From positions 18,175 through 82,174 of the forward strand of contig CAMAHK010000001.1 of assembly GCA_945834475.1 (NCBI GenBank): a DNA stretch of 64,000 nt. Direction: 5' to 3'. Position numbers and translations under genes: made by a program. This document shows positions 3,001 through 31,602 of the stretch, in pieces. The DNA is from an uncultured Verrucomicrobiota bacterium. GTDB lineage: Bacteria > Verrucomicrobiota > Kiritimatiellia > RFP12 > UBA1067. The notes below the pieces were generated by a model. That model had not been told where the DNA came from. It was given only the letters and a program-made list of their open reading frames with translations, and did no database searches. Position 1 is the stretch's first letter. The number at the start of each line of letters is the position of its first letter.

Positions 3001-6000
3001 GAAGGCCGGTCGATGCGCGCGATCCACTTCCAGGTCTTTGCGATCAAGGGCTTCGATCCGCGCGTGGCGTGGAACACCGAAGCGGCCGTCATGGTGCCGA
3101 TCGCGCACCGCGTCGACACGACTGGGTTCACGGCCTATGACGAGTTCATGACGATGACGTTCTTCCTGAACGTCGGGGCGATCGAAGAGGCCGATGTCAC
3201 GCCGAAGCCGAATCGCACGCTCGTCAACATCTGGACGGACTGCACGCCCAATCCGCTCAACGCCGATACCGACGGCGATGGCGTGCCGGATGGTTGGGAA
3301 CTCTATGTGATGGGTCAGGGCGGTTTCGTGTGCAACAACCCGATGCCGCCGGCGGGCAACAGTCACGACAACCATTCGCCGATGATCAACTGGACGGGTC
3401 ATGACGACGTGATCGGCGGCCTCAACTACGTCGAGGAGTTCTGCGGCATCGAGAGCTGCGCGCGCTACGAAAACTGCGAGACGATCGTCAACGTCCAGCC
3501 CGAGTGGAAGAACAAGTACTGGCCGACGAATCCGTTCAATAAAGATACCGACGGCGACGGTGTCACCGACTCGGGTGAAAAGACGTTCATCTACGGCGAC
3601 GCGCCGGCCTCGACGGTCTACTCGGGTGCGATCCCGGGCGGCGGCCTCAACCCGAATTCCTGGGATACCGATCTTGACGGCCTGCCCGACGGCTGGGAAC
3701 TTCAGTTCGCCTGCTCGATCCTAGTGAGCTCGACGACGACGACCGTCGAGACGCACTCCGACACGAACGGCACGTCGACGGTCACGAATACGGTGACGAC
3801 GGCGGGCGGTCCGCAGGCGGACGGCATGGACGGCACGGTCAAGGACCAGATGAAGGACTACGACCACGACGGCCTCAACAACTGGCAGGAATACATGGTC
3901 GGCGCGATGCGCTGCTGGCGTTACGACGACGTGACGACGCCGTGGACGTCGACGATGCTGACGGTCGCGGATCTTGAGGCGATGTCGGGCGAAGACTTCT
4001 ACCAGATGCTCATCGACCCGTGGGTCGATCTCGACGATCCGGAGGCGACGCCGCTCACGTACGCGAAGTACAATCCGTTCCTCGGCACGGGCGTCGTGAG
4101 CCCCTACGTCTACTTCAGCTGCTGCAACAACGCGTTCGATCTCGCGGCGGGTCGTCTCTACATGTTCAAGGACGGCATCTACCACGACCTCACGAACGAC
4201 AAGCGCGACGGCGAGAACCGCTGGTCGGCGAAGATCATGAAGTTCCGTCCGACGGGCATGGGCTTCATGACACACGACACGCTGGGCCGTCCGGCGGCGC
4301 CGCGCAAGTACATCTCGTGCGACCCGACGAACGCGGATACCGACGGCGACGGCATGGACGACTACTACGAGCTCTACCACGGCATCAACCCGCTGCTGGG
4401 CCGTGCCAACGGCAAGGGCGACTCGGGGCTCGTGGACGTGGTCGCGCGCGCCTACTACGACAAGGACGAGCTGCCGTTCCCGGTGAACGCGACGGACAAC
4501 TTCTGGTTCAACGCGGTCGCGGTCAACACCGGCACGACGTCCGCCGAGGCCCAGCTCAAGGACGAGGACCAGTCGATGTACGACTTCGTCCAGTTCCCGT
4601 GGCTGAACGGCCTGCCCGAGGCCGATCCCGACGGCGACAACATCCGCAACGCGCAGGAGTCGATCCTGCCGATCGCGCAGGCGGCCGCGACGTATCAGCA
4701 CATCGACCCGTCGCCGCTGTGGATGACCGACACGAGCTACACGAACTCGCTCGTCTCGCGGTTCTACTATCCGACGCTGGCCATCTCGAGCTTCAATCAC
4801 AGCGGCTCGTTCATGCACACGGATGCCGACGGCAACACGACGACATACAACTTCAGCGAGATCCCGGGCTTCAAGTTCGAGGAAGGCCTGGTCACGGTCA
4901 CGGCGAGCCGGAATCCGTTCAAGACGTTCGGTACGGCGTTTGCCTACGAGGAGAACGAAGGTTACGATACCGACCACGACTACCTGAGCGATTTCGAGGA
5001 ATCGCAGGGTAAGACGAAGAGTGCGTCGGATCCGCAGATGAGCGACGATCCAATCCGCCATCAGGCGATGTACTTCAACGGCGAGGACGCCTTCCTCCAG
5101 ACGCAGCTTCCGGAGGAGTGGATCCTGCCGAACGAAGAATCGGTTGCGGAGTTCCGTCAGAACTTCCTCTACTTCACGGTCGAAGCGTGGGTGAAGGCGG
5201 ATGCGTCGCTCGTTGGCGAGGCTGCCAAGCCCGGCCTCTTCACGGTCATCGAGCGTCCGATCTGGACGGGCGCGTCGAACGCGGGTGACGAAAGCTTCCT
5301 GCGCAAGAACTTCCTCATCGGCATCAAGAACGGCCGTTGGTACGCGAAGTTCGACTCGACGGGCACGGATCTCAACCAGCCGATCGAGATCAAGGAAGGT
5401 CCCGAGGCCACGGCGGCGTGGACGCATGTCGCGGCGACATTCGGTCCTGCGGACGAAGCCGACACGGAAGGCACGGGTCCGATGGCCCTCAAGCTTTACG
5501 TCGACGGCATTCTGCGCAAGTCGCTCCGTAGCGGCGTTCAGCCCGAACATGGCGTGCAGGCGTTCAACCTGACGCCGAAGTCGAAGATCGTGACGGTCTA
5601 CGAGTGGGAGGAGAACCCGCTCGCGCGTCCGATGGTCTCCATGATCGTCGGTGCGTCGGCGAAGACCATGCGCGGCATCGTGTTCGACCAGAACTGGGGT
5701 TCGGTCGACACGCCCGACATGACGACGGTCGCCGACTACGCGAACTTCTTCAAGGGCCACGTCGACGAAGTCCGCATCTGGGACGGTGCGCGCAGCGCGG
5801 CGGCGATCAAGGCCGACGTCGAGCAGAAGACGCGCTATACGACGGCGCTTGCGCTTGAGAATCGTCGGGCGGTTTACGCGAAGTGGAGCCAGGACATTAC
5901 GCGCATGCCGAATGCTAGCGGCGAGATGCTCCCGCCAGAGCTGATGTATCACTTCTCGTTCGATCATATCCCGGGCGCGGTCGAGGCCAAGGACGTCCTC

Positions 6001-9000
6001 AAGACGCCGGCGGGCTTCACGACGACGAAGGGTGCGGTCGATGCGAAGGCCAAGTGGTCGCGTCCTGACGGCTGGGTCTGCCCGTGGTGGGACAGCGTGA
6101 CGAACACGCTCCGCTCCTCGGTCTACACCGACACGGCGTGGGTGCCGTGGATCGGCAACACGGTCGGCCACCTGCCGATGTTCGACGGCGAGACGCTCGA
6201 TTCGGTGCTCTGGCACAAGGAATTCTACGGCTTCACACCGGGCAGCTTCGTGTTCCCGCTTTCGTCCGAGCCGATCAGCCGTATGATCCAGCAGCACTAT
6301 CTCGTCGAGAACAAGGGTGACCCGGAGACGCAGACGACGAGCTATGACCGTATCGCCGAAAGCGAGGACGAGGTCGAGCGCTTCCGCTTCACCTACCGCA
6401 ACCGTGTGACGGCGGGTTCCGACCTCCTGCCGTTCGGTGGCGCGTTCCCGAAGCGTCTTTCGTCCGCCGAGGGCCTGTGGGATGCTCCGGGCGTCGCCTC
6501 CGACGCGTGGGCCGAGACGGGCGTTGACGCCGACAATAACGGCCTGCCTGAGTGGTGGGAAGAGTACGCGCTCGTCGAATACGCCGACACGACGTCCGTC
6601 GACTGGGATACGATCGTGGAACGCAACGGCCAGCAGATGCCGGCGTGGCAGGCCTACCTGCGCGACCTCGCGGCGGGTATGCTCCCTGATGGCGTCATCC
6701 ATCCGGAATACGCTGACACGCGCGACATGGACAAGGACGGTCTCCCCGACTGGTGGGAGGACATGTACGGCATCAACACGCATTCGGCATCCGACGCCGA
6801 CGCCGACCCAGATCATGACGGCCTTTCGAACTACCAGGAGTACGTCCTGAGCGAGCTCTATCCGAAGAAGTACGATCTGGCCTCGTATGGCATCGCGCCG
6901 ATCCTCCTCGATCCGACGCGCGACCGTTCGGGACTCTACCAGCAGGTGACGGACTACTACCTCTCGTACACGAATACGCCGGTCGTTGTAAAGAACGCGG
7001 CGGGTGCGACGGTCTTCGAAGGCAATAACTACTTCGGCGAAATCGTCACCGACCATGACTTCATGGAAGACTGGTGGGAAATCGCCATGGGTTCGTCGTA
7101 TGCGAACGCGAAGAAGTACGATCCGCTCGCCGACCGCGACGAGGACGGTTGGTCGAACTGGGCCGAGTGCCGTGCGGCACTCTGGGGCGGTTACTTCAGC
7201 GCGAATCTCATCGACAAGTGGACGGGTTCGCAGAGCGATCAGCACGTGACGTGCTATCCCGAGCCGATCATCGGCGTGCGTGTGACGTATCATGGCGTCC
7301 GCGACATTAGCGGTCAGACGCTGATCGTCAAGACGACATCGGGTCAGACGGCCCGGACGGATGCGACGTTTATGATCCCGTCCGAGTTGGATGGCCAGGT
7401 TCGCTATATCGGCGGATTCAATGCCGACAACCTTCTCCATGGCCACATGAGCCCGGGCTGCCTTAATGTCAACTCGATCATGTTCGAGTGCGCCCGGACA
7501 AGTTCAGATCATAGCTATACGTGGAACTGCGATTGGTATATCGAGAACGAGGGTGGAGAGCCGAATGGATGGGGGATTGGACGCACCCATAACGGCAGCT
7601 TCGAGACATACCGGAGTGAGTTCGCCCTGTGGCCGAAGATTGAGCTGGAAGGCGGCGACTTGACTTGGGAGACAATGGCGCAGACCGTGCCGAGCACCGA
7701 CTTGAATTCGGCGACACTGATCGCGGACGGAAACACGATTGGTTCTGTCAACACCGTAACCGGCGAATACGAGATCGACTTCTCGAAATTCACGAAGGCG
7801 GGCGGTGCGAAGGAATATGTCTATCGCGTAACGTATACGAGCCGTGTCGGCCACGAGTGGCCGCAGACGGTCTATGTCAGCGACACGCGCGAATTGGCCA
7901 GCGGCAATGGCGAGACGGCGAAGAACAGTTACGGTCGCGTTCGTGAAGGCCGCAACACGATTGAGGCGTTCATGGATCTGAACCAGAACGGTGTTCTTGA
8001 TGCAGGCGAACCCTATGGTTCGATTCGCAATGTGCAGATCGGCTGGCACAAGGTGCCGACCGTGATCATCGAACTCAAGGACGCGTCCCCGATCATGGGT
8101 CAGGTTCAGCTGGCCGCCGCTACCGGAGAGGGGCTCACCGAGCTCACGAAGACCGTGCGGATCGTGCGTGAGTTGATCAACGACCAGCCGGCACCGCGCA
8201 CGCTCGTCACGAAGACGCTCGTGATGGACGACCGTCCGTATCTGACGGAAGTCGATGCCTGCACGGTGACGCGTCCGGATCTCGACTGGGTGTGGCTCAC
8301 GAAGGATGCGGAACGCGATGGCATCCAGACCATTAATCGCGCGACGTATGCGGTCTACGAATACGACCAGAATATGGCGACGAACGGTGCGTTGCTCGCG
8401 ACGTTCATCAAGGAGTTCCCAGAGGTGCGTCCCATGGCGACGGCCGTAGCGCCGAAGGATGTGGCGCCGGTCTACAGTTGCTCGCCGACGTTCGCGTTCA
8501 CGACGAGCGACGAGAAGGCGACGGCTTATCGTCTGCAGGTGCGTTTGGACGGCGCAACAGCCCCGATCTACGATTCGGGCATTCAGCTGCTGCCAGGACG
8601 CCTCGGCCAGACGGTTGGCGTCGCGGCCTATGAGGTTACGCCGGCAATCTACGCCGATGCGCCGGTTTACGCCGGCACGACGACCGATCACGCGATCTTC
8701 GCGGACGGCACGAACTACCAGTGGCGCGTCGCCCTTTACGATGCGAAGTACAAGTCGACGAAGGACGATAGCGACGTCTCGGGCGAATGGAGTACCTGGG
8801 CGACGTTCCAAATGGATCTTGTGAACAAGAATCGCTACCCCGGCATCCCGACGGGTTACGGTGCGACATCCGTGGCCGTCCGCTACTTTGGCTCTGCGGA
8901 CTGCGATTCCAAGCGGATTGTGGTCGAGGCGTACGAGAATGCGGACTTCCGCGGCCAGGCGCTCGCGCAGATTCGCCTTTCCGACGCGACGACGCTTCGT

Positions 9001-12000
9001 GATGCGAACGATCTGACGACCTACAATGCGGTTCTGCGTGGCATCAAGCCCGGCACGGTCTATTTCCGCGCGTTCTACGACCAGAACAACAATGGCGTGC
9101 GCGACAACTGGGAAAGCTGGGGTTACGCCAATAACGTCGGCAAGAATGTCACGGCCATCTACAATCCGGTGGGTCGCGAGATTACGACCTCGACGGCCGA
9201 CTGGGTGACGCAGAAGTCGGCGGCCGTGACAATCTTCATGGAAGACTGTGACGTCAACCAGAACGAGATTCCGGATTGCGCCGAGGAGGCGCTCTTCCTG
9301 GCCGAGGTGTCGGCTGAGACCGATCCTGTCGATTGGTGGGACTGGGCTGAGGCGAATCCGACTGACGTCAACGGCGACGAGGCGATGGCTTATGCTGAAG
9401 TGACGATGTGGAAGGTGAAGCTCGTCGACGAGAACGGCGTCGAGAACACCTATTTGACCGATGGCCAAGGCAAGCTTGTTGAAGGCGTGTCGGCGGCGGG
9501 TCTCAACTTCTGGTCGTACTACGATTACTCGCTCACGTTGCTGGGTCTCGGCACGAATGTGACGACGAATGTGACGGCGAAGTGCACGATCGCGGGTCGT
9601 CCCGAGGAGAAGAAGGTCGCGCTGGTCCACGCCCAGGTGCTGGAGAAGTACGGGTTCTGTCCCGACACGGCGATTCCGGGCGGTCAGACGAACACCAAGC
9701 CGTTCACGGCAATGGATAAGTACCTCGTCCTCCGCTACCTCGAGCGCACGGGTCGCATTACGCTGCCCGCGTCGACGCAGGCCGAGCTCGCGAAGAAGGG
9801 CTTGACGTTCGAAGAGTATGTCTACCGTTCGGGTGACGAGTCGCTCTACAAGATGTACACGCTCAATCCGGCGGAGACCGACAATGACCACGACGGCATT
9901 GACGATGGCTGGGAGCTTTACATCGACGGCAATCCGCTGAGCGACGCGAACCGCGATGAGGATGAGGATGGCGACGGACTCCCGCTCTGGCAGGAATACG
10001 ATCACGACCCTGTGAAGGGCACGTATCGTCCGACCAATCCTTCGGCCATCGACACGGATGCCGACGGTGTGACGGACAAGTACGCCTACATGTATCACCT
10101 CAAGGCGGATGACGCCGGCAAGGACTTCGACGGCGACGGGCTTTCCAACTATGCGGAATACCTGATCACCGAGGTCTTCAAGTACGCGGTATGCAATCCG
10201 GATGTCTACGCGACGAACGACGGCGTCTGCGACTACTTCCGCAAGGTCGGCGATGTCTACCTCGGCGAGATCTTCACGGATCACGACCAGGTGGACGATG
10301 TCTGGGAGTCGCAGTACAAGGTCGACTACGCCAATCGTTACGTCTACGATCCGACAAAGGATGCGGATAACGACGGCTGGTCGAACTGGGCCGAGTACAA
10401 GGCGGGTACGGATCCGGAGCGCGTCAACACGCTGTCAATCGGCACGTACACGCTGCCGGAGTATCCGGTCCCGGCGATCGAGGCGAACGTGATCTACAAT
10501 GGCGCGTCCGTTGGTCTCCATCCGATTGTGTTCAAGGCCTGGAACGAGTCGACCGACTTCGACATGGTGAAGGCCCCTGACGCGATCTGGACGCTCGGTA
10601 CGGCCGTGTCGTCCACGGACGGGGATTCGTCTAGTGATTCGGCGGCCTCGTCGCTGACGCTCACGCAGCGTGAGAAGTTCCTTGGCCGCAAGCCGACGGG
10701 CACACGCACGTACCACCTGCCGGGTGGCGCGATTAGCGAGGGTTCCATCAAGCTCCTGTTCATGGACAAGGGCTACGGCGTCGTCCGCTGGGATCCGCTG
10801 ACGCAGATGCTGTACGCGGTCGCCAACGGTGAACCGGACAAGGCGAAGTGGTATTACGGTATCTACGACAAGGACGGCAAGCTTGTGCGTATCGGTAATG
10901 CCTTCGATGAAAAGGAGACGACAGTTGGTACGGTCGACTATGCGACGGGCGAGATCACGATCGACTTCGACCACGAGGAGAACTCGGGCAAGTGGGCGTG
11001 CAATCCCGGCGATGCCGTCAGTGGTGGCGATAATAACAATAACAACACCGACAACGAGACACAGGCGAACATCTACGAGTATGTCGACTTCGACAATGCC
11101 TATGTCCGCATCACGTGGGCGTCGGCGAAGGTCAACGAGTCGATCTCGGGTGCGTACTACCTGACGGATTCCGATCCGATCAGCGAGACGGCGAAGAGCT
11201 ACGGCCATATCCGCGAAGGCAAGAACACCTTCATCTGCTTCGTCGATGACGATGAGAACGGTGAGTACACGCCGGGCGAGCTCTTCGGCGTCGTCCGCGG
11301 CGTCAACGTCGGCTGGGCGGGCGTCAAGTTCGATGTTGAGCTGACGGAGACGCATCCGATCTTCGGCCGCGTCGATCTCTCGGGCCAGAACGATCGCCAG
11401 ATCTGGTATGGTTCTGACAGCGGCAACTTCACGAATCTTGTCTACGGCGTTCCCGGAACAGAGGATTCGTTGCCCGTTGATTCGTCGCTCAGCGGCGGTC
11501 GCAAGCAGCGAGTCCGTGTCGATCGCTATGCCGTGAATGGCATGACCTTGGGCACCACGATCACGCAGGTGAATGTTCCCAATCGCGTGATTGTCGACAA
11601 GTGGTTCGACGTTGACGCGCGCCGTTATCTCCATGAGGGCGACTTTATGGAGGCAGGTGAATTCGACATTGACTGGACGCATTTCGAGGAAGACATCCTC
11701 AACAGTCGCGTCATTGATCAGAAGTTTGGCGGCGAAGTCATTTCGATGACGTACCGCATTGTCGTCGACAATGCCGACTTCGTCCACCCCGTGGTGTCGA
11801 ACCGTGTCCTGAACGTGGCCTTCACCCGTCACTTCGACAGCACCGACTCGCGGACCAAGCCGAGCGACCTCCAGCCTATCCTCGCCCATGGCGCGCGTCC
11901 GGTGTTCAAGTGGTCGATGAACGGGCACAATTCGTACACCGCGTTCAAGTTGCGGATCCTCTCGGGCAGCCAGGTTGTCTATGAGAGCCCGATGACGACG

Positions 12001-13158
12001 GTGCCGTTCGTGGATCCTGACGGATACTACGTGTACGAGTCGCCTGTTTCCGTCGGCGATCAGACGGCGCTTGGTCGTGTGCTCGAGCGTGCGGGCAATT
12101 ATACGTGGACGGTCTCGATGTACAATTCGAAGTTCAAGTCCGACTACTATGCGACGCCTGTGTCGTTCACGACCGAGGTGAACACCCAGCAGGATGTTGA
12201 CGACCATGGTTACGGCACGATCGATGTGGCGGTCAAATACGCAGGCCCCGAGGCTGTCCTTGCGACACTTGATGACCTGACGAAGGTGGCCGGCAAGATC
12301 CGCGTTCAGGCGTTTGAAACGCCGGACTTCGGCGGCCAGCCTGTTGCCGAGACGTTCGTCACGAACAAGACGAGCGTCACGGCGTTCACGGAAACCCGAG
12401 CAAACGTGCGTCTCCGTGGTGTCAAGCCAGGTACCTACTACATTCGTGCGTACATCGATTCGGATGGTGACTTCAAGAAGTCGGACTGGGAGTCGTGGGG
12501 CTGTGCCAAGGGTTCGGTCACGGTGGCGGCCAATGCGCCGGTTCCGACGGCTGCGGTCTGGATCGAAGACGCCGACACGGACGGTGACTGGCTGCCGGAT
12601 GCCTGGGAGTATGTGACGCCCGGCAAGACCGTCGGCGCGAAGGACATCGTGGTGGACAACGCGGGCGAGATCGTTCTCAAGGAAACGACGTTCGTCGGCG
12701 TGACAAACGGCACGGCCGGAGTTTCGTCCGGCCTGAGCGGTGCGTCCCTCACGTTCTTCCAAAACCTCGAGGCCGCGAAGGTGATGCTCAACCTCGGTAC
12801 GGACAGCACGACATCGACGATTCAGGCGATCCGCGAGGCCGTCCAGAAGAAGATCGTGCCGAACACGGTCCACGTCAAGGCTCTGGTCGTCGACGCGGCG
12901 AATAAGAAGGTGAAGCTTTCGGTCGGCGGTGAAGTCGTCGATTCGATTGCGGGCCATCTCCTCTCGCCGATCTATACGATTCCGACGACGGCGACGGTGA
13001 CGATCAGCCTTTACACGAAGGCCTCGCTGGTCGATGTGAACTGGATCTGGGTCAAGGATTACACGACTACCGTGTCAACAACGCTTGACACGACGGTCGA
13101 GGTTGACATTGATGAAGACCTGACGAGCGGCTTCTACAAGGTCGAGGTCGTGCAGTAA
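1..13158 (+). CDS. Giant surface/secreted repeat protein, 5'-partial (>4,385 aa): thrombospondin-type-3-like Ca-binding repeats, LamG/ConA-like lectin domain, shared C-terminal module
   Basis: The frame is open from nt 1 (no stop upstream of the first Met at 43) to TAA at 13156-13158. At least 10 D-x-D-x-D-G-x-P-D-x-(W/Y)-E motifs are present (DTDGDGLPDGYE ~nt 2620, DTDGDGVPDGWE ~3270, DTDGDGMDDYYE ~4340). A LamG-like block reads FTVEAWVK..WTHVAATF..LKLYVDG..VDEVRIWDGARS (~nt 5170-5800). Modules EG(R/K)NT..D.N.NG and Y(F/Y)xRA(F/Y)xD..G..D.WESWG are each duplicated. The protein ends ..SGFYKVEVVQ. Confidence 0.85.
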   Translation, partial: NALTEGAADTSFTPMPLEITVDNVPAKVAEAYVGDSWDEAKDDPAWNTAAPIEIPCGVTVPLYLVLEDPSAEDFKSNVVTVIRWTTDDAKKQWTKSPIITNLTEQVAELRFTESMFPNPNREHNVQIITVDKDEMAALASPITEAEWKSGLFRLKLKNPQTFNFRLKVLTKPHISVEQVGFKTGKYGPLMDETGNDGQTGLKIAIDEPADRDLVVRVMLKPSAEANRGVLEFATPTFTNADHSVYTDIIIPNGTMTPAESATYKSTTGLLFNYKTIDGTDISYNDGWEISATITNEIQKAGQEAGKPYFSDYSGQWVYVQNLPPVVFPEEPTVLTTNRTQSIGVPFTVEWWATDVKSDLEYVWANGKKGLIAEWYMGEDGDMSMPSMATNVTKSGEHIKTTVTLANEGLTTLRLVVRDKDGSGEVGTVGERRWLFYISPSKKLIATPAGPGNARTKYKTYRGLGEGRVWADGGNVSVTGFAQKWSYSIKTAQGRVYAYGYPHASAPYADNGSLQPHDVALNENGDSWTSGAYYHYGQEMSGYLYDNYFYCWAFVIPSDQGGAPTVELDIVNPDMKPVANANTGVVLAEYEENKEDYLESEVEAVFARELYTHDNMGDINADRVPDLYLRTYPGLGIVDEDGNRTGDERTSVAGGNPDGDMLPGDLSSPMGNFIPGLSNNWTRAFQTVTEIRGVGEAFNNGPSIRGPKGVVCDIRYTDPQVDTNSTLTALEYIAFTNFCGRTAVDEDDYVAKTNVAGWAAWSPENPTDPTMDDSDEDGLPDGYEYYYWYRAHVGMIKYNADGTPDPASYTRLTGRKYVPADPCNPEIITPEAIEQICNPNVPLAGFRVDQDTDNDGIPDLDELVAGTNPFDYDTDGDGLPDGYELAISKTNPLVADRGSNVDGDQMALITLENVIPVTCVYKEDDNTVTNMLWSLEGVDVAENEDDDTITNLTTKTSLFTAYTYDIDNEGKPVWVLGRLVLDAKDAKYDDKIKEYNVIHVGEGRSMRAIHFQVFAIKGFDPRVAWNTEAAVMVPIAHRVDTTGFTAYDEFMTMTFFLNVGAIEEADVTPKPNRTLVNIWTDCTPNPLNADTDGDGVPDGWELYVMGQGGFVCNNPMPPAGNSHDNHSPMINWTGHDDVIGGLNYVEEFCGIESCARYENCETIVNVQPEWKNKYWPTNPFNKDTDGDGVTDSGEKTFIYGDAPASTVYSGAIPGGGLNPNSWDTDLDGLPDGWELQFACSILVSSTTTTVETHSDTNGTSTVTNTVTTAGGPQADGMDGTVKDQMKDYDHDGLNNWQEYMVGAMRCWRYDDVTTPWTSTMLTVADLEAMSGEDFYQMLIDPWVDLDDPEATPLTYAKYNPFLGTGVVSPYVYFSCCNNAFDLAAGRLYMFKDGIYHDLTNDKRDGENRWSAKIMKFRPTGMGFMTHDTLGRPAAPRKYISCDPTNADTDGDGMDDYYELYHGINPLLGRANGKGDSGLVDVVARAYYDKDELPFPVNATDNFWFNAVAVNTGTTSAEAQLKDEDQSMYDFVQFPWLNGLPEADPDGDNIRNAQESILPIAQAAATYQHIDPSPLWMTDTSYTNSLVSRFYYPTLAISSFNHSGSFMHTDADGNTTTYNFSEIPGFKFEEGLVTVTASRNPFKTFGTAFAYEENEGYDTDHDYLSDFEESQGKTKSASDPQMSDDPIRHQAMYFNGEDAFLQTQLPEEWILPNEESVAEFRQNFLYFTVEAWVKADASLVGEAAKPGLFTVIERPIWTGASNAGDESFLRKNFLIGIKNGRWYAKFDSTGTDLNQPIEIKEGPEATAAWTHVAATFGPADEADTEGTGPMALKLYVDGILRKSLRSGVQPEHGVQAFNLTPKSKIVTVYEWEENPLARPMVSMIVGASAKTMRGIVFDQNWGSVDTPDMTTVADYANFFKGHVDEVRIWDGARSAAAIKADVEQKTRYTTALALENRRAVYAKWSQDITRMPNASGEMLPPELMYHFSFDHIPGAVEAKDVLKTPAGFTTTKGAVDAKAKWSRPDGWVCPWWDSVTNTLRSSVYTDTAWVPWIGNTVGHLPMFDGETLDSVLWHKEFYGFTPGSFVFPLSSEPISRMIQQHYLVENKGDPETQTTSYDRIAESEDEVERFRFTYRNRVTAGSDLLPFGGAFPKRLSSAEGLWDAPGVASDAWAETGVDADNNGLPEWWEEYALVEYADTTSVDWDTIVERNGQQMPAWQAYLRDLAAGMLPDGVIHPEYADTRDMDKDGLPDWWEDMYGINTHSASDADADPDHDGLSNYQEYVLSELYPKKYDLASYGIAPILLDPTRDRSGLYQQVTDYYLSYTNTPVVVKNAAGATVFEGNNYFGEIVTDHDFMEDWWEIAMGSSYANAKKYDPLADRDEDGWSNWAECRAALWGGYFSANLIDKWTGSQSDQHVTCYPEPIIGVRVTYHGVRDISGQTLIVKTTSGQTARTDATFMIPSELDGQVRYIGGFNADNLLHGHMSPGCLNVNSIMFECARTSSDHSYTWNCDWYIENEGGEPNGWGIGRTHNGSFETYRSEFALWPKIELEGGDLTWETMAQTVPSTDLNSATLIADGNTIGSVNTVTGEYEIDFSKFTKAGGAKEYVYRVTYTSRVGHEWPQTVYVSDTRELASGNGETAKNSYGRVREGRNTIEAFMDLNQNGVLDAGEPYGSIRNVQIGWHKVPTVIIELKDASPIMGQVQLAAATGEGLTELTKTVRIVRELINDQPAPRTLVTKTLVMDDRPYLTEVDACTVTRPDLDWVWLTKDAERDGIQTINRATYAVYEYDQNMATNGALLATFIKEFPEVRPMATAVAPKDVAPVYSCSPTFAFTTSDEKATAYRLQVRLDGATAPIYDSGIQLLPGRLGQTVGVAAYEVTPAIYADAPVYAGTTTDHAIFADGTNYQWRVALYDAKYKSTKDDSDVSGEWSTWATFQMDLVNKNRYPGIPTGYGATSVAVRYFGSADCDSKRIVVEAYENADFRGQALAQIRLSDATTLRDANDLTTYNAVLRGIKPGTVYFRAFYDQNNNGVRDNWESWGYANNVGKNVTAIYNPVGREITTSTADWVTQKSAAVTIFMEDCDVNQNEIPDCAEEALFLAEVSAETDPVDWWDWAEANPTDVNGDEAMAYAEVTMWKVKLVDENGVENTYLTDGQGKLVEGVSAAGLNFWSYYDYSLTLLGLGTNVTTNVTAKCTIAGRPEEKKVALVHAQVLEKYGFCPDTAIPGGQTNTKPFTAMDKYLVLRYLERTGRITLPASTQAELAKKGLTFEEYVYRSGDESLYKMYTLNPAETDNDHDGIDDGWELYIDGNPLSDANRDEDEDGDGLPLWQEYDHDPVKGTYRPTNPSAIDTDADGVTDKYAYMYHLKADDAGKDFDGDGLSNYAEYLITEVFKYAVCNPDVYATNDGVCDYFRKVGDVYLGEIFTDHDQVDDVWESQYKVDYANRYVYDPTKDADNDGWSNWAEYKAGTDPERVNTLSIGTYTLPEYPVPAIEANVIYNGASVGLHPIVFKAWNESTDFDMVKAPDAIWTLGTAVSSTDGDSSSDSAASSLTLTQREKFLGRKPTGTRTYHLPGGAISEGSIKLLFMDKGYGVVRWDPLTQMLYAVANGEPDKAKWYYGIYDKDGKLVRIGNAFDEKETTVGTVDYATGEITIDFDHEENSGKWACNPGDAVSGGDNNNNNTDNETQANIYEYVDFDNAYVRITWASAKVNESISGAYYLTDSDPISETAKSYGHIREGKNTFICFVDDDENGEYTPGELFGVVRGVNVGWAGVKFDVELTETHPIFGRVDLSGQNDRQIWYGSDSGNFTNLVYGVPGTEDSLPVDSSLSGGRKQRVRVDRYAVNGMTLGTTITQVNVPNRVIVDKWFDVDARRYLHEGDFMEAGEFDIDWTHFEEDILNSRVIDQKFGGEVISMTYRIVVDNADFVHPVVSNRVLNVAFTRHFDSTDSRTKPSDLQPILAHGARPVFKWSMNGHNSYTAFKLRILSGSQVVYESPMTTVPFVDPDGYYVYESPVSVGDQTALGRVLERAGNYTWTVSMYNSKFKSDYYATPVSFTTEVNTQQDVDDHGYGTIDVAVKYAGPEAVLATLDDLTKVAGKIRVQAFETPDFGGQPVAETFVTNKTSVTAFTETRANVRLRGVKPGTYYIRAYIDSDGDFKKSDWESWGCAKGSVTVAANAPVPTAAVWIEDADTDGDWLPDAWEYVTPGKTVGAKDIVVDNAGEIVLKETTFVGVTNGTAGVSSGLSGASLTFFQNLEAAKVMLNLGTDSTTSTIQAIREAVQKKIVPNTVHVKALVVDAANKKVKLSVGGEVVDSIAGHLLSPIYTIPTTATVTISLYTKASLVDVNWIWVKDYTTTVSTTLDTTVEVDIDEDLTSGFYKVEVVQ

Positions 13159-16672: not shown

Positions 16673-16779
16673 AAGTGATAAGCGATAAGTGATAAGTGTT
16701 AAGTGATGGTGGGAGATTCTTAAGTACAAAAGAGACAAAACGTCGACCACTTATCGCTTATCACTTAACACTTAACACT
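16673..16779. repeat. Intercistronic inverted array of GTGATAA/GCGATAA/GTGTTAA heptamers
   Basis: The left arm 16673-16709 is AAGTGATAAGCGATAAGTGATAAGTGTTAAGTGATGG. The right arm 16747-16779 is CCACTTATCGCTTATCACTTAACACTTAACACT. A 19-nt exact inverted match (AGTGATAAGCGATAAGTG(G/A)) links them. The left arm starts 13 nt after the pta stop and the right arm ends 8 nt before the kdsD ATG. Confidence 0.85.
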
Positions 16780-16787
16780 AAAGAACC

Positions 16788-17819
16788 ATGACAGCAGAAG
16801 AGCAGATCAAGAGAGCAAAAGAGGTCTTTGATGTCGAAATCAATGGCCTTGAAGCGACCCGTGATTCGATCGGCGAGGCGTTCACCGCAGCGATTGCGAT
16901 GATGCTGGACTGTGTCCAGCGCGACGGCATCGTCGTTGTCTCGGGCGTCGGCAAGAACCTGCACATCGCCGAGAAGATGAGCGCGATTTTCGCCTCGACG
17001 GGAACGCGCTCCATCGTCTTGAATCCCGTGCAGGCGATGCACGGCGACCTCGGCATGGTCAGCTCGCGTGACATCCTGATCGCGCTCTCATTCTCGGGCG
17101 AGTCGGCCGAAGTCAACAATCTCATCCCGGCGATCCGGCGTCACGGACTCAAGGTCATCTCGATGACGGGCAAGCCCGAGTCGACGCTGGCGAAGCTCTC
17201 CGATGTTCATATCGAGATTCCGTGCGGCAAAGAGGCGTGTCCCTTCGGGATGGCGCCGACGAACTCGACGACGGCGACGATGGCGATGGGCGACGCACTC
17301 GCGATGGTGATGATTGACGCGCAGAAGTTCGAGCTCTCGAACTACGCGATGAATCATCCGGCCGGGGCGATCGGTCGTGCGCTCGTGATGAAGGTCTCCG
17401 ACATCATGCGTACCGGCGAGAAGCTGGCGACGGTCGCCCCGACGGCGACGGTGATGGAGACCGTAATGGCGATGACCGCGGCGAAGAGCGGCGCCGCCGT
17501 CGTGGTGGATGAAGCGGGAATGCTCAAGGGCATCTTCACGGACGGGGACTTCAGGCGTGTGATTGCTTCGGGTGCGACGCGACAGGAGTGTCGCGTCCCC
17601 GAGGGTGAGACGCCGCAACGGGGGCGCGACACTCTTGTCGCGCCGATTGAGAGCGTGATGACCACCTCGCCGATGTTCGTGCGCGCGAGTGCCTATGCGG
17701 CGGAGCTCCTCAAGATCTTCGAGAAGAAGCGCATCGACGATCTCCCCGTCTGCGACGCGAACGGCAAGGTGGTCGGTCTCGTCGACATCCAAGATCTTCC
17801 CAAAATGAAAGTCCTCTAA
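16788..17819 (+). CDS. kdsD: Arabinose-5-phosphate isomerase (KdsD/KpsF type: SIS domain + CBS pair)
   Basis: SIS motifs VVSGVGKNLHIAEKMSAIFASTG and LIALSFSGES. CBS pair motifs GIFTDGDFRR .. VGLVDIQDL. The inter-CBS linker is longer than I expect and carries two palindromes (separate feature). Confidence 0.85.
   Translation: MTAEEQIKRAKEVFDVEINGLEATRDSIGEAFTAAIAMMLDCVQRDGIVVVSGVGKNLHIAEKMSAIFASTGTRSIVLNPVQAMHGDLGMVSSRDILIALSFSGESAEVNNLIPAIRRHGLKVISMTGKPESTLAKLSDVHIEIPCGKEACPFGMAPTNSTTATMAMGDALAMVMIDAQKFELSNYAMNHPAGAIGRALVMKVSDIMRTGEKLATVAPTATVMETVMAMTAAKSGAAVVVDEAGMLKGIFTDGDFRRVIASGATRQECRVPEGETPQRGRDTLVAPIESVMTTSPMFVRASAYAAELLKIFEKKRIDDLPVCDANGKVVGLVDIQDLPKMKVL
17576..17644. repeat. Inverted pair of 22-nt GC-rich hairpins (REPIN-like) lying in-frame inside kdsD
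   Basis: 17576-17597 is GACGCGACA-GGAG-TGTCGCGTC. 17623-17644 is GGCGCGACA-CTCT-TGTCGCGCC. Both have perfect 9-bp stems, and the loops are reverse complements of each other. A third copy is at 31691-31712 in rho. Confidence 0.85.
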
Positions 17820-17822
17820 TCC

Positions 17823-17867
17823 GTCTCAGTGGTCTTAGTCGTCTTAGAAAGTCTTAGCAAGTCTCTA
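17823..17867. repeat. Five phased GTCT(T/C)(A/C)(G/A) heptamers at 9-10-nt spacing upstream of the pilus-like cluster
   Basis: GTCTCAG 17823, GTCTTAG 17832, 17841 and 17851, GTCTCTA 17861. The first gene of the cluster starts at 17894. Confidence 0.7.
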
Positions 17868-17893
17868 CAAGCAAATTAGAAAGGAAAACAACC

Positions 17894-18607
17894 ATGAAGA
17901 AGCTGATGATTTCAACGGTTCTCGTGCTCGCTGCGGCGTCCGTGTTTGCGGCACCCAAAATGAAGAAGGCTGCTGCTGTTGCTGCGGTTGATGACGAGGT
18001 CACGACGGGCAGGGGTGCGAAGATTCTCATCTCTCAGGAACCGAAGCTCGGCCAGGCCGCGTGTCTAGGGGCGCCGTCGGTGGCGGGGGCATCGCTGATC
18101 GGCCAGGCCTACAAGAAGCCGCGCCAGTGGATTGTCCTTGAGACGAAGTACGATACCTTCGGCACGGAGAAGTCGAAGTTCCTCGACCAGCTCACGTTCA
18201 CGTGGCACGTCCTCCTCGAGACGAAGAGCGCGAAGGAGAACAAGGGCAACAAGGAAGGGCTTGCGCCGTACAGCTACTTCACGACGGCGACGACGTACTT
18301 CAATATTCCGACTGGCTCGCATGCCGCGTCGGTCGTGTTGTCGCCGAGCTATCTTGAGCGTTACGGTGAGCCGAAGGCCGTCGGTCTTGAAATCACGAAC
18401 CAGAACGGCGAGATGCTCAATGGCGACTGCTGGAGCGAAGTGAAGGGCATCGCCCCGCACAAGAAGTTCTGGGAAGACCCGAAGATCATGAATGCGGACG
18501 GGGCGGACGGCAATCCGATGATCGAGCGTCGCCAGGGTCTTGTCGACCGTTCGAAGACAATTTGGGCTCTCGTCAACCCGAACGACTACGAAGCAACGAT
18601 TCAGTAA
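17894..18607 (+). CDS. Secreted protein, first gene of the pilus/secretin-like cluster (positional equivalent of Akkermansia Amuc_1102)
   Basis: Signal peptide MKKLMISTVLVLAAASVFA-AP. 237 aa. An SD-like GAAAGGA lies upstream. It sits 48 nt upstream of the pilM-like gene. I recognised no catalytic motif. Confidence 0.6.
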   Translation: MKKLMISTVLVLAAASVFAAPKMKKAAAVAAVDDEVTTGRGAKILISQEPKLGQAACLGAPSVAGASLIGQAYKKPRQWIVLETKYDTFGTEKSKFLDQLTFTWHVLLETKSAKENKGNKEGLAPYSYFTTATTYFNIPTGSHAASVVLSPSYLERYGEPKAVGLEITNQNGEMLNGDCWSEVKGIAPHKKFWEDPKIMNADGADGNPMIERRQGLVDRSKTIWALVNPNDYEATIQ

Positions 18608-25658: not shown

Positions 25659-28600
25659 ATGACCCAAACACAGATCAGATCTGTCATCCGGAGGGGGCTC
25701 TTGAGCTCCCTCTGTTTGATTATGCCCCTTGTTGTGCAAGCAACGGGTATCAATGTTAACCTGAGCGAAACCGAACGGGCCAAGGGCAGCATTTCCCCGG
25801 CTGGCAAAACCTTCGACATCCAGACCGGGACGATGACGTTCACGGCCATTCCGAAGACGGGGTACGAGCTGGTGGGCTGGGGTGTGTCGATCGGGGAGAG
25901 CGCGGTCACAATCAATCCCGCGAATCCAAATGAACTGACGGTGACGGCATCGGCGTCGGTTCTGGTCGTGCAGATGCAGCCGACCTTCAGGGCCTCGACG
26001 TACACGCTCCGCTTCGATGCGAACGGCGGCCAGACGCCGAATGCGTCGCAAAAGGTGACGTACGGCACGGAGCTGGCGGCTTTGCCCGTGCCGACGCGGG
26101 AGGGACACACCTTTAACGGCTGGTTCGTCGGAACGCGGCAGATTCTCGCGGGCGAGACGGTAACATTCACCGCGAATGTCACGGCCACAGCGAACTGGAC
26201 GGTCAACAAGTACGCCTTCAAGCTGACGATTACCAAGGGTATCAAGGGCGTTTACTACAAGCTTGGTGAAGAGACCACGCGCTACAATTCGAGTTCGGTT
26301 TCCGAGTCGGTCGCCTATGGCACAAGTTACAGTTGGTATGCTGAGCCGGCGACGGGCTATACGACGACCTACACGCTTGAGAATCCGAAAACCGGAACGA
26401 TCGGCGCACAGGAAACGGCCTTTACCGTGGGAGCCGTGGCTCAGAAGATGACGGTTTATTTCGATCCTGGAACGGGTGGGACGACACCCGTCGCCTCTAA
26501 GTCGGTGACATACGATCAGCCCTATGGTGAGCTGCCGATTCCCGAAAAGGACGGTTCTCATTTCGAAGGCTGGGAAACGCCGTCGAGAGACCGTATCGAT
26601 GCGACGACGATCGTCCGGCTGACGGCCGATACGACGCTGACGGCGCGGTGGAGCGCGGAAAAGGTTCAGGTCGTGTCCAGCGCGACGAATGGACGCGTCA
26701 GCGTCTCGCCGACGACAGTCGAATTCGGGAAGCCGGTCGAGATCCAATGGTGGCCGAATTCTGAAAGCGGCTACGACTATGCTTTCGCCCAGGCCAAGGT
26801 TTATGCCGGAAGCGACGCGACCGGCATTTGCTTGGAGACATATACGGAAGGCGTTGGCGCACTCTTCACGCTCACCAAGTACTATCCGACAATCGCCGTG
26901 GTGGTCGAGTACACGAAATCGGCGAAGGCGTATAAGGTGACGTTCAACGGCAACGAGGGGACGTCCTCGCAGGAAGATGCGATCGTTCACTACAAGGAAC
27001 CTTTTGGCACACTACCGACGGCCACGCGAACGGGCTATGACTTCGACGGTTGGTCGACTTTGCGTTCGGGCTCGTCGCGCGTCACCGAGACGGATCTCTA
27101 CGAGTGGACGTACGACCGCGAGCTCTATGCACGGTGGATCGCAAAGACGTATGCGATCACGACCGAAACGACGCACTGTCAGCTGGCCGTGACGACGAAC
27201 GGGTTGGAAACGTCCATGGGGGCGTACGACCGTCCGATTCTGATTTCGGCGACCCCCGAGTCGCGCACGGGTTACGACACTCGCCTGACGTCGGTCGTCG
27301 TCTATTCGTCTGCCAGTCCCGGCGCGAGTCCGATCAAGAACATCTCCTCCCCGGAGAACTTCATCATGAGCGGCCTGCAGGCCTATTACGAGGGCATCGT
27401 GATCCGCGCGATTGCGACGCAGACGGCCTGCACATACACACTGTCGTTCGATCTGAACGGCGGAATGGGATCGGCCGAAAATCGCAACGTCACCTACGAC
27501 GGGATGTACGGTGACTTGCCGATAGTGACGCGCACAGGATACGATTTTGTCTCTTGGCAACTGTCGGACGGTACGGTCGTAACGCCCGAGGACACGGTAA
27601 AGATTACGGCGAACGCCAAGCTGACGGCACAGTGGCAGGCGAAGACCTTTAACGTTTCGTTCGATCCGCAAACGAAGGACGTCGAGACACCGTCGGCCAT
27701 CGCGGTCACCTACGATGCGACGTACGGGACATTGCCGACGTTGATCCGTACGGGTTATACGTTCAATGGTTGGTACGATGCGAAGACGGAAATCACCGCA
27801 GAGACGACGGTGAAGATTACGTCCGACCAGACGCTGACGGCAAAATGGACGGCGAACCGCTACACGATCCTCTTTAATGCGAACGGCGGTTCAGGCACGA
27901 TGACGAGCGTGGCTGATTGCGCGTATGATGAGCCGGTCAAACTGCCGCTCTGTGCTTTCCGACACAAGACACATACGTTCATCGGATGGGCGACAGACCC
28001 CCTAGCAGAAACGCCAGACTATGCTGATGGTGCGAGTGTTTATGGATTGACGGACGAAAGTGAAATATCGCTCTATGCTGTTTGGTTGGATACGCGCAAC
28101 GAGTTGTCCAAGGCCGCACATTGCGTTAACTGCACCGTTGAGGGTACGGGTAACATACCTTTTGTTCCGTGGTATGATCCTGTGTCGGGTCAGACGGCTG
28201 CGCAAAGCGGGTATCGGGATCTGCCGTTCGTTTCGCAGGAGGTTAGTAGTAGCTGGATGCGTTTAAATCTTGTTGGCCCTGGAACGTTCTCGTTTAAGTG
28301 GCGTGTTGGTGAGGGTGATCCAATTTGTAAGATATCGCTTTACATAGACACGAAGTACATGGGCACGAAAGAAGAGTATCCGGCAGAGAATTGGGATGAA
28401 AACTTTAATGTTGTTCAGGAAGGACTTTGGTTCCGTGTAACTTGCAAACTTTCAGAGTCTCGTTCCTATGCGGTAGATTTTGAATCTTTTGCGCGTAAAG
28501 AACAGGGCCATGGCTACATCCTCGTCGACGAGTTGACCTGGACGCCGAACGGAACGAACCCCGCGCCGACGGAGGCGGATCGGCCGGTGATTGGGGCGGG

Positions 28601-28817
28601 GTTTTCGTTTATGACGGATGCGCGGTTTGACTATGTCATTTGGACGACGGAATCGCTGGTGTCGCCGATCGAGTGGAAGCCTGGCGAGCCGATTCATGGA
28701 ACAGGCGAGGCGGTGAAGCTGCCGGGGTTGCTGGGAGTCGCCGCAGGCGGGGACGCACTGCGGTACGGGGATGTGCCGCAGCGGTTCTACAAGGTCGAAG
28801 TCCGTCAGCGGAAATGA
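25659..28817 (+). CDS. Listeria-Bacteroides repeat (Flg_new / InlB B-repeat) surface protein with shared C-terminal module
   Basis: Six repeats of the pattern Y(T/K)(L/V)xF(D/N)xNGG....V.Y....G.LP...R.GY.F.GW......T....I..D..L.A.W. Signal peptide present. Ends ..YVIWTTESLVSPIEW..RFYKVEVRQRK. Starts 11 nt after the secretin stop. Confidence 0.85.
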   Translation: MTQTQIRSVIRRGLLSSLCLIMPLVVQATGINVNLSETERAKGSISPAGKTFDIQTGTMTFTAIPKTGYELVGWGVSIGESAVTINPANPNELTVTASASVLVVQMQPTFRASTYTLRFDANGGQTPNASQKVTYGTELAALPVPTREGHTFNGWFVGTRQILAGETVTFTANVTATANWTVNKYAFKLTITKGIKGVYYKLGEETTRYNSSSVSESVAYGTSYSWYAEPATGYTTTYTLENPKTGTIGAQETAFTVGAVAQKMTVYFDPGTGGTTPVASKSVTYDQPYGELPIPEKDGSHFEGWETPSRDRIDATTIVRLTADTTLTARWSAEKVQVVSSATNGRVSVSPTTVEFGKPVEIQWWPNSESGYDYAFAQAKVYAGSDATGICLETYTEGVGALFTLTKYYPTIAVVVEYTKSAKAYKVTFNGNEGTSSQEDAIVHYKEPFGTLPTATRTGYDFDGWSTLRSGSSRVTETDLYEWTYDRELYARWIAKTYAITTETTHCQLAVTTNGLETSMGAYDRPILISATPESRTGYDTRLTSVVVYSSASPGASPIKNISSPENFIMSGLQAYYEGIVIRAIATQTACTYTLSFDLNGGMGSAENRNVTYDGMYGDLPIVTRTGYDFVSWQLSDGTVVTPEDTVKITANAKLTAQWQAKTFNVSFDPQTKDVETPSAIAVTYDATYGTLPTLIRTGYTFNGWYDAKTEITAETTVKITSDQTLTAKWTANRYTILFNANGGSGTMTSVADCAYDEPVKLPLCAFRHKTHTFIGWATDPLAETPDYADGASVYGLTDESEISLYAVWLDTRNELSKAAHCVNCTVEGTGNIPFVPWYDPVSGQTAAQSGYRDLPFVSQEVSSSWMRLNLVGPGTFSFKWRVGEGDPICKISLYIDTKYMGTKEEYPAENWDENFNVVQEGLWFRVTCKLSESRSYAVDFESFARKEQGHGYILVDELTWTPNGTNPAPTEADRPVIGAGFSFMTDARFDYVIWTTESLVSPIEWKPGEPIHGTGEAVKLPGLLGVAAGGDALRYGDVPQRFYKVEVRQRK

Positions 28818-28864: not shown

Positions 28865-28895
28865 GCGAACTGATGTATCTGATACATTAGTTCGC
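28865..28895. repeat. Hairpin H1 GCGAACTGATGTATC-T-GATACATTAGTTCGC
   Basis: 15-bp stem with one G.T pair, read directly. Lies 48 nt after the stop of the repeat-protein gene. Confidence 0.9.
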
Positions 28896-29195: not shown

Positions 29196-29226
29196 GTGAA
29201 CTAATGTATTTGATACATCAGTTCGG
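29196..29226. repeat. Hairpin H2 (inverted orientation relative to H1)
   Basis: GTGAACTAATGTATTTGATACATCAGTTCGG equals the reverse complement of H1 with 4 mismatches in 31. It ends 15 nt before the RAYT-like ATG. Confidence 0.85.
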
Positions 29227-29241
29227 TAATTGGAGCGCATC

Positions 29242-30362: not shown

Positions 30363-30392
30363 GCGAACTGATGTATCAAATACATTAGTTCG
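30363..30392. repeat. Hairpin H4 (same orientation as H1)
   Basis: GCGAACTGATGTATCAAATACATTAGTTCG. Lies 27 nt after the RAYT-like stop and 10 nt before the duplicated gene 3' end. Confidence 0.9.
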
Positions 30393-30402
30393 TCTCTGAA
30401 GC

Positions 30403-30669
30403 GAGGCGGATCGGCCGGTGATCGGAGCAGGGTTCTCGTTCATGACGGCTGCGTATGTCATCTGGACGGCCGAGTCGCTGGAGAATGGGGGCGTGTGGAC
30501 GCCGGGTGAGACGATTCGGGGGACTGGCGAGGCGGTGAAATTGCCGGGGTGGCTGGGAATCGCCGCAGGTGGGGACGCACGGCCTTCGGCTGCGTCGGCC
30601 TGACGGCCTCGGCTCGGGCGGTACGGGGATGCGCCGCAGCGGTTCTACAAGGTCGAAGTCCGTCAGCGG
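30403..30669 (+). pseudogene. Decayed second copy of the C-terminal module of the Listeria-Bacteroides-repeat gene
   Basis: 30403-30669 aligns by eye with 28572-28811 (GAGGCGGATCGGCCGGTGAT.. to ..TTCTACAAGGTCGAAGTCCGTCAGCGG). A 38-nt insertion at 30581-30618 replaces 2 nt and introduces an in-frame TGA. There is no upstream gene body. Confidence 0.75.
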
Positions 30670-30693
30670 CAGAACTGAAGTTAGATGAGTTGC

Positions 30694-30799
30694 GATTTTG
30701 ACCAAATCCAAGTTATTTGGTTAGATTTGGTCAAAATCATAATTTCAAGATCACGATATTGACCAAATCTCATAATTTTGGTATCATTTGGTCAATATC
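30694..30799 (+). promoter_or_regulatory. Tandem pair of promoter-like modules, each embedded in a 14-15-nt inverted repeat (TTGACCAAAT / ATTTGGTCAA)
   Basis: IR1: GATTTTGACCAAATC 30694-30708 against GATTTGGTCAAAATC 30724-30738. IR2: GATATTGACCAAAT 30755-30768 against ATTTGGTCAATATC 30786-30799. Candidate promoters: TTGACC(30698)-17 nt-TGgTTAGAT and TTGACC(30759)-17 nt-TGgTATCAT(30782-30787). Confidence 0.45.
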
Positions 30800-31597: not shown

Positions 31598-31602
31598 TAC
31601 TT

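Follow-up and report, generated by a model that had tools for sequence, protein, structure and literature searches.

A head-to-head pair of hairpin repeats read in frame within kdsD of an uncultured Kiritimatiellae bacterium, probably from a dispersed REP-type family

Repetitive extragenic palindromic (REP) elements, bacterial interspersed mosaic elements (BIMEs) and REP doublets forming hairpins (REPINs) are treated by Bertels and Rainey (2011) and by Nunvar et al. (2010), both cited in PMC3733652. A REP is a 20-40-nt GC-rich hairpin with an unpaired conserved tetranucleotide, GTAG or CGTC, at one foot of its stem. REPs number tens to hundreds of dispersed copies per genome and lie mainly outside genes, 3' of open reading frames (ORFs), and they also occur as head-to-head dimers with a short spacer, foldable into one long hairpin. 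The subject here is a pair of GC-rich hairpins at positions 17575-17645 of a 64,000-nt stretch of DNA (the window) from an uncultured Kiritimatiellae bacterium, inside a gene for a KdsD-like arabinose-5-phosphate isomerase. We think it probable that this pair consists of two 27-nt REP-type units joined head to head, that the unit belongs to a dispersed family and that the dimer is tolerated in a permissive loop of the protein.

REPs inside genes have been described before. Di Nocera, De Gregorio and Rocco (2013, BMC Genomics 14:522, PMC3733652) report intragenic GTAG REPs in Opitutus terrae and others, and 'O.terrae' appears 70 times in its Additional file 3, which points to about 70 intragenic REP entries. 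According to the same paper, intragenic REP dimers are head-to-head and encode 20-30 amino acids (aa) within ORFs, including those of a verrucomicrobium, several ORFs have more than one REP insert, and the insertion of REPs in unrelated proteins argues against a function of the peptide. O. terrae resembles our case in having single units and dimers wholly inside ORFs of known proteins, in a bacterium of the Planctomycetes-Verrucomicrobia-Chlamydiae (PVC) type, and differs in its tag, in its peptides (VGPALAAG, GTGVPPV and HGRDARAT, from GTAG-17 to -20) and in host class, which here is Kiritimatiellae. The host proteins in our case, KdsD, Rho and ABC-F, are not noted among the REP hosts in the available text of PMC3733652, the peptides of the GC unit are absent from its Additional file 3, and the hairpin core sequence was not found in a relevant context in the literature searched. 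A first-pass annotation of the window had taken the in-frame palindrome to be undescribed for a PVC genome; that novelty argument fails because of the intragenic REPs of O. terrae. The phenomenon of translated hairpin repeats is already known, and it is the sequence family itself that is different.

The other known system to compare is that of the Rickettsia palindromic elements (RPEs), of which RPE-1 to RPE-8 are references 13 and 14 of PMC3733652, where RPE-4 and RPE-6 are described as CGTC-tagged REPs. The likeness to RPEs, which the first-pass annotation had drawn, is largely right: these too are palindromic, selfish-looking DNA placed in frame in essential genes, translated and tolerated on the protein surface, and the KdsD pair is in frame, absent from close orthologues and in a disordered segment. 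The differences are that there is no sequence similarity and that the RPE hosts are obligate intracellular alphaproteobacteria; RPE-1 is roughly 100-150 bp long. Miniature inverted-repeat transposable elements (MITEs), such as the Correia elements of Neisseria and the cyanobacterial Nezha, are small non-autonomous repeats with inverted ends, occasionally found in ORFs, and have terminal inverted repeats derived from insertion sequences together with target-site duplications. The GC unit differs from them in being a single 22-nt hairpin without these features, and the MITE class does not fit, as the combination is seen neither at 17575-17645 nor at 31687-31713, the site of a further unit in rho.

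The gene that hosts the pair is an ORF of 343 aa at 16788-17819 (+), with Pfam matches to SIS (1.5e-24) and to CBS (1.4e-20, in 2 stretches) and with PDB matches that are arabinose 5-phosphate isomerases. Both hairpins lie within this ORF and in frame. The left one, 17576-17597, is GACGCGACA-GGAG-TGTCGCGTC and the right one, 17623-17644, is GGCGCGACA-CTCT-TGTCGCGCC; each has a perfect 9-bp stem and a 4-nt loop, and the gap between them is 25 nt, all as the first-pass annotation had claimed. That the loops are exact mutual reverse complements, as it also stated, is off by one base, since the reverse complement of GGAG is CTCC and the loop found is CTCT. The copies are indeed inverted, and the inverted arms are longer than the hairpins, 17575-17601 and 17619-17645, 27 nt each and 89% complementary. 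The spacer between them (17602-17618, 17 nt, AGGGTGAGACGCCGCAA) is not conserved between lineages. The left unit, on the minus strand, reads CGGGGACGCGACACTCCTGTCGCGTCG there and encodes (A)TRQECRVP in the gene, and the right unit, on the plus strand, is CGGGGGCGCGACACTCTTGTCGCGCCG and encodes RGRDTLVAP. The whole head-to-head dimer, 17575-17645, measures 71 nt, has its GGGG/CCCC tags facing inward, and encodes the 24 residues A263-P286 of KdsD, ATRQECRVPEGETPQRGRDTLVAP. As DNA, the left hairpin is calculated at -11 kcal/mol (z -3.9) and the right one at -12.6 kcal/mol (z -5.7), and for the dimer as RNA the predicted structure is one hairpin of 24 bp, with -59.8 kcal/mol and a z of -6.7.

The hairpin pattern of the first-pass annotation has 3 matches in the window against 0.06 expected, and a relaxed core, CGACA-N4-TGTCG, finds the same three sites and no others. 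The third match, 31691-31712, is in rho. The three copies align as an asymmetric unit of 27 nt, 5'-CGGG-G(A/G)CGCGACA-CTC(T/C)-TGTCGCG(T/C)C-G-3', which is stop-free in all six frames, and with copies from other genomes the consensus becomes 5'-CGGG-G(N)CGCGACA-YTCY-TGTCGCG(N')C-G-3'. A chance match or an assembly artefact can appeal only to the small copy number. None of 100 shuffles reaches 3 matches, the identical KdsD protein occurs in the independent assemblies ERZ11448883 and ERZ27292453, and the pair and the Rho unit are both found on many independent metagenome contigs of another lineage; chance and artefact are thereby refuted, and we give them practically no weight. A gene identical to that of the window is also present on a pig-gut metagenome contig.

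Whether the pair is an addition to the protein can be read from its homologues. Among KdsD homologues (n = 120, 72-99% identity), the segment from FRRV to xMT is hypervariable, and the lengths run from 320 to 372 aa. The window KdsD, at 343 aa, is 13 aa longer than the nearest pair-less orthologue (330 aa), and many others have 320-329 aa. P0002 and P0003 have a plain linker of 19 residues where the window has 32, and the DNA of P0003 (locus L005) contains no palindrome there. In the solved CBS pair 4o9k, 129 residues align to query residues 196-342 (147 aa), which leaves an excess of 18 aa. An AlphaFold model of KdsD from 57 homologues has a mean predicted local distance difference test (pLDDT) score of 82 and falls below 50 at residues 264-277, between a helix that stops at 264 and the beginning of CBS2. 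Taken together, the variable linker, the 4o9k alignment and the low pLDDT argue that the insert is a disordered surface loop between the two CBS domains, on the evidence of the model, and comparison with relatives indicates a net gain to the protein of 13-18 aa. The first-pass annotation's estimate of a linker about 16 aa longer was hence a fair one; its view of an in-frame insertion agrees with the intact ORF and with the lack of an insert in L005, P0002 and P0003, and the modeling check it had proposed for a surface loop came out in its favor, with pLDDT <50 at 264-277 and well-predicted CBS domains on both sides.

The solitary unit in rho, 31687-31713 (+), is CGGGGACGCGACACTCTTGTCGCGTCG and encodes residues 29-37, RGRDTLVAS, in an N-terminal disordered extension that is hypervariable among homologues. 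The gene is 31603-33180 (+), with a probable ATG at 31603 and homologues that have Rho_RNA_bind and ATP-synt_ab, and the hairpin match starts 88 nt into it. This unit shares the frame of the right KdsD unit (RGRDTLVA), and the left KdsD unit uses a different one (TRQECRVP). The same Rho site is occupied in one other lineage (P0122-P0125, L075), and the unit is absent from all other listed orthologues. NCBI lists a Rho homologue of 83% identity under the name Kiritimatiellae bacterium. The Rho core is 93-96% identical in many homologues, too conserved to tell which lineages are closest for the Rho unit. In both of these essential genes the ORFs establish, at the level of sequence, the potential of the units to be translated in frame.

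Copies in other genomes extend the family well past the window. L003/L004 and L075 have the KdsD pair and the Rho unit at the same sites as the window. These contigs hold the P0004 group of KdsD and the P0122-P0125 group of Rho, and a single abundant lineage is their probable source, a link that we infer. An intergenic unit lies at 5807-5829 of L003, 16 nt past the kdsD stop, and is kept in L072. In Joint Genome Institute (JGI) metagenomes a scan with the exact pattern matched 5 contigs, and in 4 of these, as well as in L043 (rumen metagenome-assembled genome (MAG) RUG572), the unit sits in the linker of an ABC-F/Uup-like gene. It is read there in a third frame, SGTRHSCRVS, and is preceded by 15 nt by a diverged partner hairpin, GCGGCA-AGAG-TGCCGC-TTCCCC, so that this locus too is a head-to-head dimer; the partner has a compensated A-T to G-C change in its stem. 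L068 has two intergenic units, one on each side of a small cassette, and the verrucomicrobial MAGs L020 and L016 have inverted pairs, among the matches listed. The hairpin is thus not unique to kdsD, in agreement with what the first-pass annotation had expected of a repeat: the window has another copy in Rho, and relatives have copies in an ABC-F gene and between genes.

For genome contigs a more permissive pattern, GGGGNCGCGACANNNNTGTCGCG, was used, which gives at least 61 stretches that are mostly chance matches in GC-rich genomes. Among the matches listed, hairpins with a YTCY loop are all from PVC genomes or from one Armatimonadota-class 'Zipacnadia' MAG, with Akkermansiaceae (L020), Verrucomicrobiaceae (L042), Phycisphaerae (L029) and 'Lentisphaerae' RUG572 (L043) as the others named. 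Stem position 2, which the pattern leaves free, is complementary in 8/8 of the YTCY-loop matches listed versus 23/55 of the other matches listed, and the eight use A-T, G-C, T-A and C-G. The unit family appears, from these sequence matches, to be dispersed in Kiritimatiellae and other PVC-type genomes at genic and intergenic sites. Its stem-preserving covariation and the position of relatives' copies just 3' of stop codons (L003, L072) are further likenesses to REPs and REPINs. In solitary units inside or just after genes, the 5' end on the sense strand is always the GGGG one. A scan of viral contigs with the hairpin pattern gave 0 matches, and a search of the concatenated six-frame peptide against a 5.8-billion-protein database gave none at E<=10, a threshold that nine-residue matches cannot reach.

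Two side observations belong with these copies. In the ABC-F orthologue of L069 (~1750-1891), the left partner hairpin and spacer, 42 nt, SGKSAASPTGDNSR, form an in-frame tandem triplication upstream of the GC unit. Also, in MAG JALGVE01 ('Candidatus Zipacnadia', Armatimonadota; loci L019, L024, L027, L033, L034, L038, L045 and L063), the same hairpin, as GGGGGCGCGACA-TTCY-TGTCGCGC, forms tandem arrays with periods of 41, 50, 92 and 127 nt, in many cases with another hairpin, GCCGCCGACA-GGAA-TGTCGGCGCC, as its partner; this genome is very repeat-rich and of a different phylum.

Since Rho and the right KdsD unit share the frame that gives RGRDTLVA(S/P), one might ask if a short linear peptide motif, RGRDTLVA, is what is selected, with the DNA palindrome incidental to it. 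There is a precedent in the WGRDTFVAL motif of unrelated glycogen-debranching enzymes, whose coding sequence has this palindrome as a by-product. Encoded by GGGGCCGCGACAC(C/T)TTTGTCGCGCT, that motif is a protein-driven look-alike that produces false positives in pattern searches, and L008, L040, L025 and L022, four of the genome-contig matches, were discarded for this reason. For the GC unit the idea is largely refuted by the use of three reading frames (RGRDTLVA, TRQECRV of the left unit in KdsD and GTRHSCRV of the unit in ABC-F) and by the intergenic copies, and it also sits poorly with the conservation of synonymous positions and the disorder of both protein sites; we consider it very improbable. 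The three frames, the intergenic copies and the stem covariation, taken jointly, show that the conserved entity is the nucleic-acid hairpin and not the peptide.

How well the hairpin is conserved is best seen in comparison of the window with L003/L075. The stems have 1 change in 54 positions and the loops 5 in 12, all transitions. In a codon alignment with L003 the KdsD arms are identical at 46/51 positions and the six codons of spacer between them at 8/18 (44%); the Rho unit is identical at 23/27, and its disordered flanks are 49% identical. Third codon positions are ~88% identical within the units versus 65-73% gene-wide. The first loop base is C in 3/3 window units and T in 4/4 units of L003/L075. 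The stems are so much better kept than their surroundings that either the hairpin is under selection or intragenomic copies homogenise each other, and selection or intragenomic gene conversion would explain the loop base being species-specific. The constraint is not absolute, given that the P0004 population contains uncompensated stem-breaking variants (RGRDILGAP, CRAP and CRVL).

These figures support a rival in which the hairpin is a selected nucleic-acid signal, a protein-binding site or an mRNA or single-stranded DNA structure for stability, pausing or topology, that is kept in ORFs because it is useful. It can also point to the GGGG tag and YTCY loop being found, among the matches listed, in Kiritimatiellae, Verrucomicrobiae, Phycisphaerae and the Armatimonadota-class MAG, and to the constant orientation of the solitary units on the sense strand. 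Gene conversion among repeats within a genome gives the same conservation, though, the closest relative has an intact kdsD without the pair, and the stem-breaking variants speak against it as well. Rfam at gathering thresholds assigns no family to any hairpin in the window and 19 loci, and we know of no cognate factor for the hairpin. A promoter scan finds nothing at the hairpins, and a terminator-like site, meaning a GC hairpin with a T-tract, is absent from 16700-18000 and 31300-32100; an intrinsic terminator role is rejected for lack of a T-tract at the hairpins. We regard a selected signal as unlikely. Similarly low is the likelihood of a bolder version, in which the hairpin is a signal conserved across PVC classes and beyond, bound by a conserved trans-acting protein and kept in essential genes, with the KdsD linker as a recurrent landing pad and with gain, loss and exchange between non-sister species.

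The history of the KdsD site is not simple. Across the syntenic block of PTA, KdsD and pilus genes, L005 is closest to the window and L003 groups with L072. PTA is 96% identical between the window and L005 and 88% between the window and L003; for the KdsD core the values are 93% and 85%, and for the TSP3-like protein 75% and 52%. The KdsD linker has the GC-hairpin pair in the window and in L003, is plain and without palindrome in L005, and in L072 has a different 58-nt imperfect palindrome, GACAGACGACAAAGGACATCAGACA...TGTCGGCTGTCCGTTGTCCTCTGTC, at ~10770-10830. When L072 was searched for more copies of this 58-nt palindrome, no useful match came up. From these sequences the inter-CBS linker appears to collect different repeats in different lineages. 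Other linkers were seen with repeats of their own: in L074 a (GGTCAGA)n heptamer microsatellite runs in frame and gives RSEVRGQ repeats at ~1230-1300, L073 has a decayed GC pair with extra hairpins at ~1680-1800, and P0073, P0092 and P0097 have protein-level signs of more repeats. The linker coordinates in L072, L073 and L074 are approximate, being derived from the linker residue range.

In a neighbor-joining tree of 121 KdsD proteins with the linker removed, the window falls within a pair-less clade and the P0004 group in another. That L003 is a sister species sharing an ancestral insertion was an idea we dropped, as the multi-gene comparison puts the empty-site L005 closer. The window is nearer to L003 than to L005 in KdsD residues 256-298 only. 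The identity of this tract to L003 does not exceed the average of the gene, and recent transfer from the L003 lineage is therefore unsupported. The history is one of three: the site gained the pair twice, it gained the pair once and lost it several times, or a short tract was transferred by recombination.

If the units are REPs, a transposase of the RAYT (REP-associated tyrosine transposase) type would be expected as the mobilizing enzyme, its gene flanked by copies of the REP itself. RAYT/TIRYT queries were rebuilt from Additional file 5 of PMC3733652 and run against the six-frame ORFs of 620 kb of sequence. The sole Y1_Tnp match is in the window itself, ORF 29230-30336 (+), 368 aa, which scores 26.6 bits against Pfam Y1_Tnp (gathering 23) and 35.6 against NCBIfam REP_Tyr_transpos, under its cut-off of 80. 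It has an HUH motif (NHFH), Y-x3-NPVRA and a C-terminal tail like a helix-turn-helix, and is RAYT/TIRYT-like. It is flanked exactly by an AT-richer 27-nt palindrome, GAACTRATGTAT-NNN-ATACATYAGTTC, with flanking arms that are 100% complementary. There are 4 copies within 1.5 kb (28867-28893, 29198-29224, 29885-29911 and 30365-30391), one of which is in frame within the Y1 ORF (TRTDVSDTIVRP), and none elsewhere in the window or in 76 compared loci. An enzyme of the appropriate kind is thus encoded in this genome, and within the window its link to the GC hairpin is contradicted. Of the first-pass annotation's term REPIN-like, the head-to-head REPIN/BIME-like geometry stands, and mobilization by a RAYT is unsupported, given the different palindrome around the only Y1 gene; 'REPIN' in the strict RAYT-mobilised sense is unproven.

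Around this gene there are other repeats. The 3' end of the upstream Flg_new-repeat gene (25659-28817) is duplicated beyond the transposase (28701-28811 / 30523-30669, 89-98% identity), so that a transposase cassette of ~1.8 kb lies between direct duplicates of ~110-150 bp. Upstream of coaE, at 30693-30803, there are two AT-rich palindromes, GATTTTGACCAAAT..ATTTGGTCAAAATC and TCACGATATTGACCAAAT..ATTTGGTCAATATCGTGA, the latter with 18-nt arms that are 100% complementary.

Several of the observations weigh against a dispersed REP-type unit inserted as a dimer. The unpaired tag is GGG(G), present as (C)GGG/GGGG in all units, in place of the GTAG or CGTC of REPs. The window genome has 3 units at 2 loci in 71.75 kb, all intragenic, unlike classical REPs, and the 7.75 kb of contig beyond the window end adds no further unit. 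No Y1 transposase, RAYT included, is flanked by the GC hairpin in the 620 kb, and no direct repeats that could be a target-site duplication flank 17575-17645 or 31687-31713. The pair occurs in two non-sister lineages, discordant with phylogeny, for which a single simple insertion is inadequate. Finally, L-x-A-P-I looks native in the KdsD of several pair-less homologues, as does RGR in the Rho of P0180/L076, each overlapping one end of a unit, so that the exact inserted DNA cannot be delimited.

The last of these points speaks for a local origin of the palindromes, without transposition. They could stem from template-switch errors in replication, in which the complementary strand is copied and native codons become perfect hairpins, or from a short piece of kdsD moved between species by recombination. 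In the right hairpin the 3' half, CTT GTC GCG CCG (LVAP), aligns with the native L-x-A-P-I, the native RGR codons of L076 line up with the 5' GGGGNCGC in the Rho unit, and the L003-like patch at KdsD residues 256-298 fits a recombined segment. The patch is, as noted above, only at the gene average in identity to L003, with no recent transfer evident, and a local process cannot account for the same 25-27 nt turning up between genes in several genomes and, read in three frames, inside three genes that are unrelated. We hold local origin to be improbable, and a dispersed REP-type unit remains our preferred reading.

On that preferred reading, the units would spread as single-stranded hairpins by way of an HUH/Y1 (RAYT-like) transposase acting in trans. 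The dimer would have landed in, or recombined into, the loop that joins the KdsD CBS domains, and a single unit would have come to lie in the N-terminal disordered extension of Rho. Because the unit is free of stops and both sites are structurally permissive, the ribosome would read through and the protein would gain a disordered stretch. Persistence may be due to this combination of permissive sites and a stop-free unit, and the stems may be kept by a constraint at the level of nucleic acid, either hairpin selection or gene conversion, and not by a role of the peptide.

As for the surroundings, the window is 58% GC, and the neighbors of kdsD are a pilus cluster of the Amuc_1102/Amuc_1100 type with PilM and a secretin. 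With the name of the Rho homologue and the pig-gut contig, these features point to a genome of PVC type, probably that of a Kiritimatiellae member from the gut. The intergenic spacer between kdsD and Amuc_1102 (17827-17865) has a short direct repeat, GGTCTTAGTCGTCTTAGAAAGTCTTAGCAAGTCT, and its place is taken by a GC hairpin in L003 and L072. Upstream, part of a giant gene (43-13158, +), whose full product is called at 5098 aa on the source contig and matches TSP3_bac weakly, is followed by DUF3990, acetate kinase, PTA and kdsD.

What the finding adds is that Kiritimatiellae, here an uncultured pig-gut lineage, and the housekeeping genes kdsD, rho and ABC-F join the short list of translated hairpin repeats. 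Three aspects deserve to be followed: how patchy the phylogenetic distribution is, how unusually well the stems are kept, and how the KdsD linker has been colonised repeatedly. Linker-length differences of KdsD and Rho in this clade are a warning for annotation, being derived from repeats and not functional domains. With the KdsD site empty in some close lineages, and in others holding the dimer, other palindromes or a 7-nt microsatellite, it is a compact natural experiment, in which gain and loss of repeats in coding DNA can be compared across lineages, as can what keeps the stems intact.

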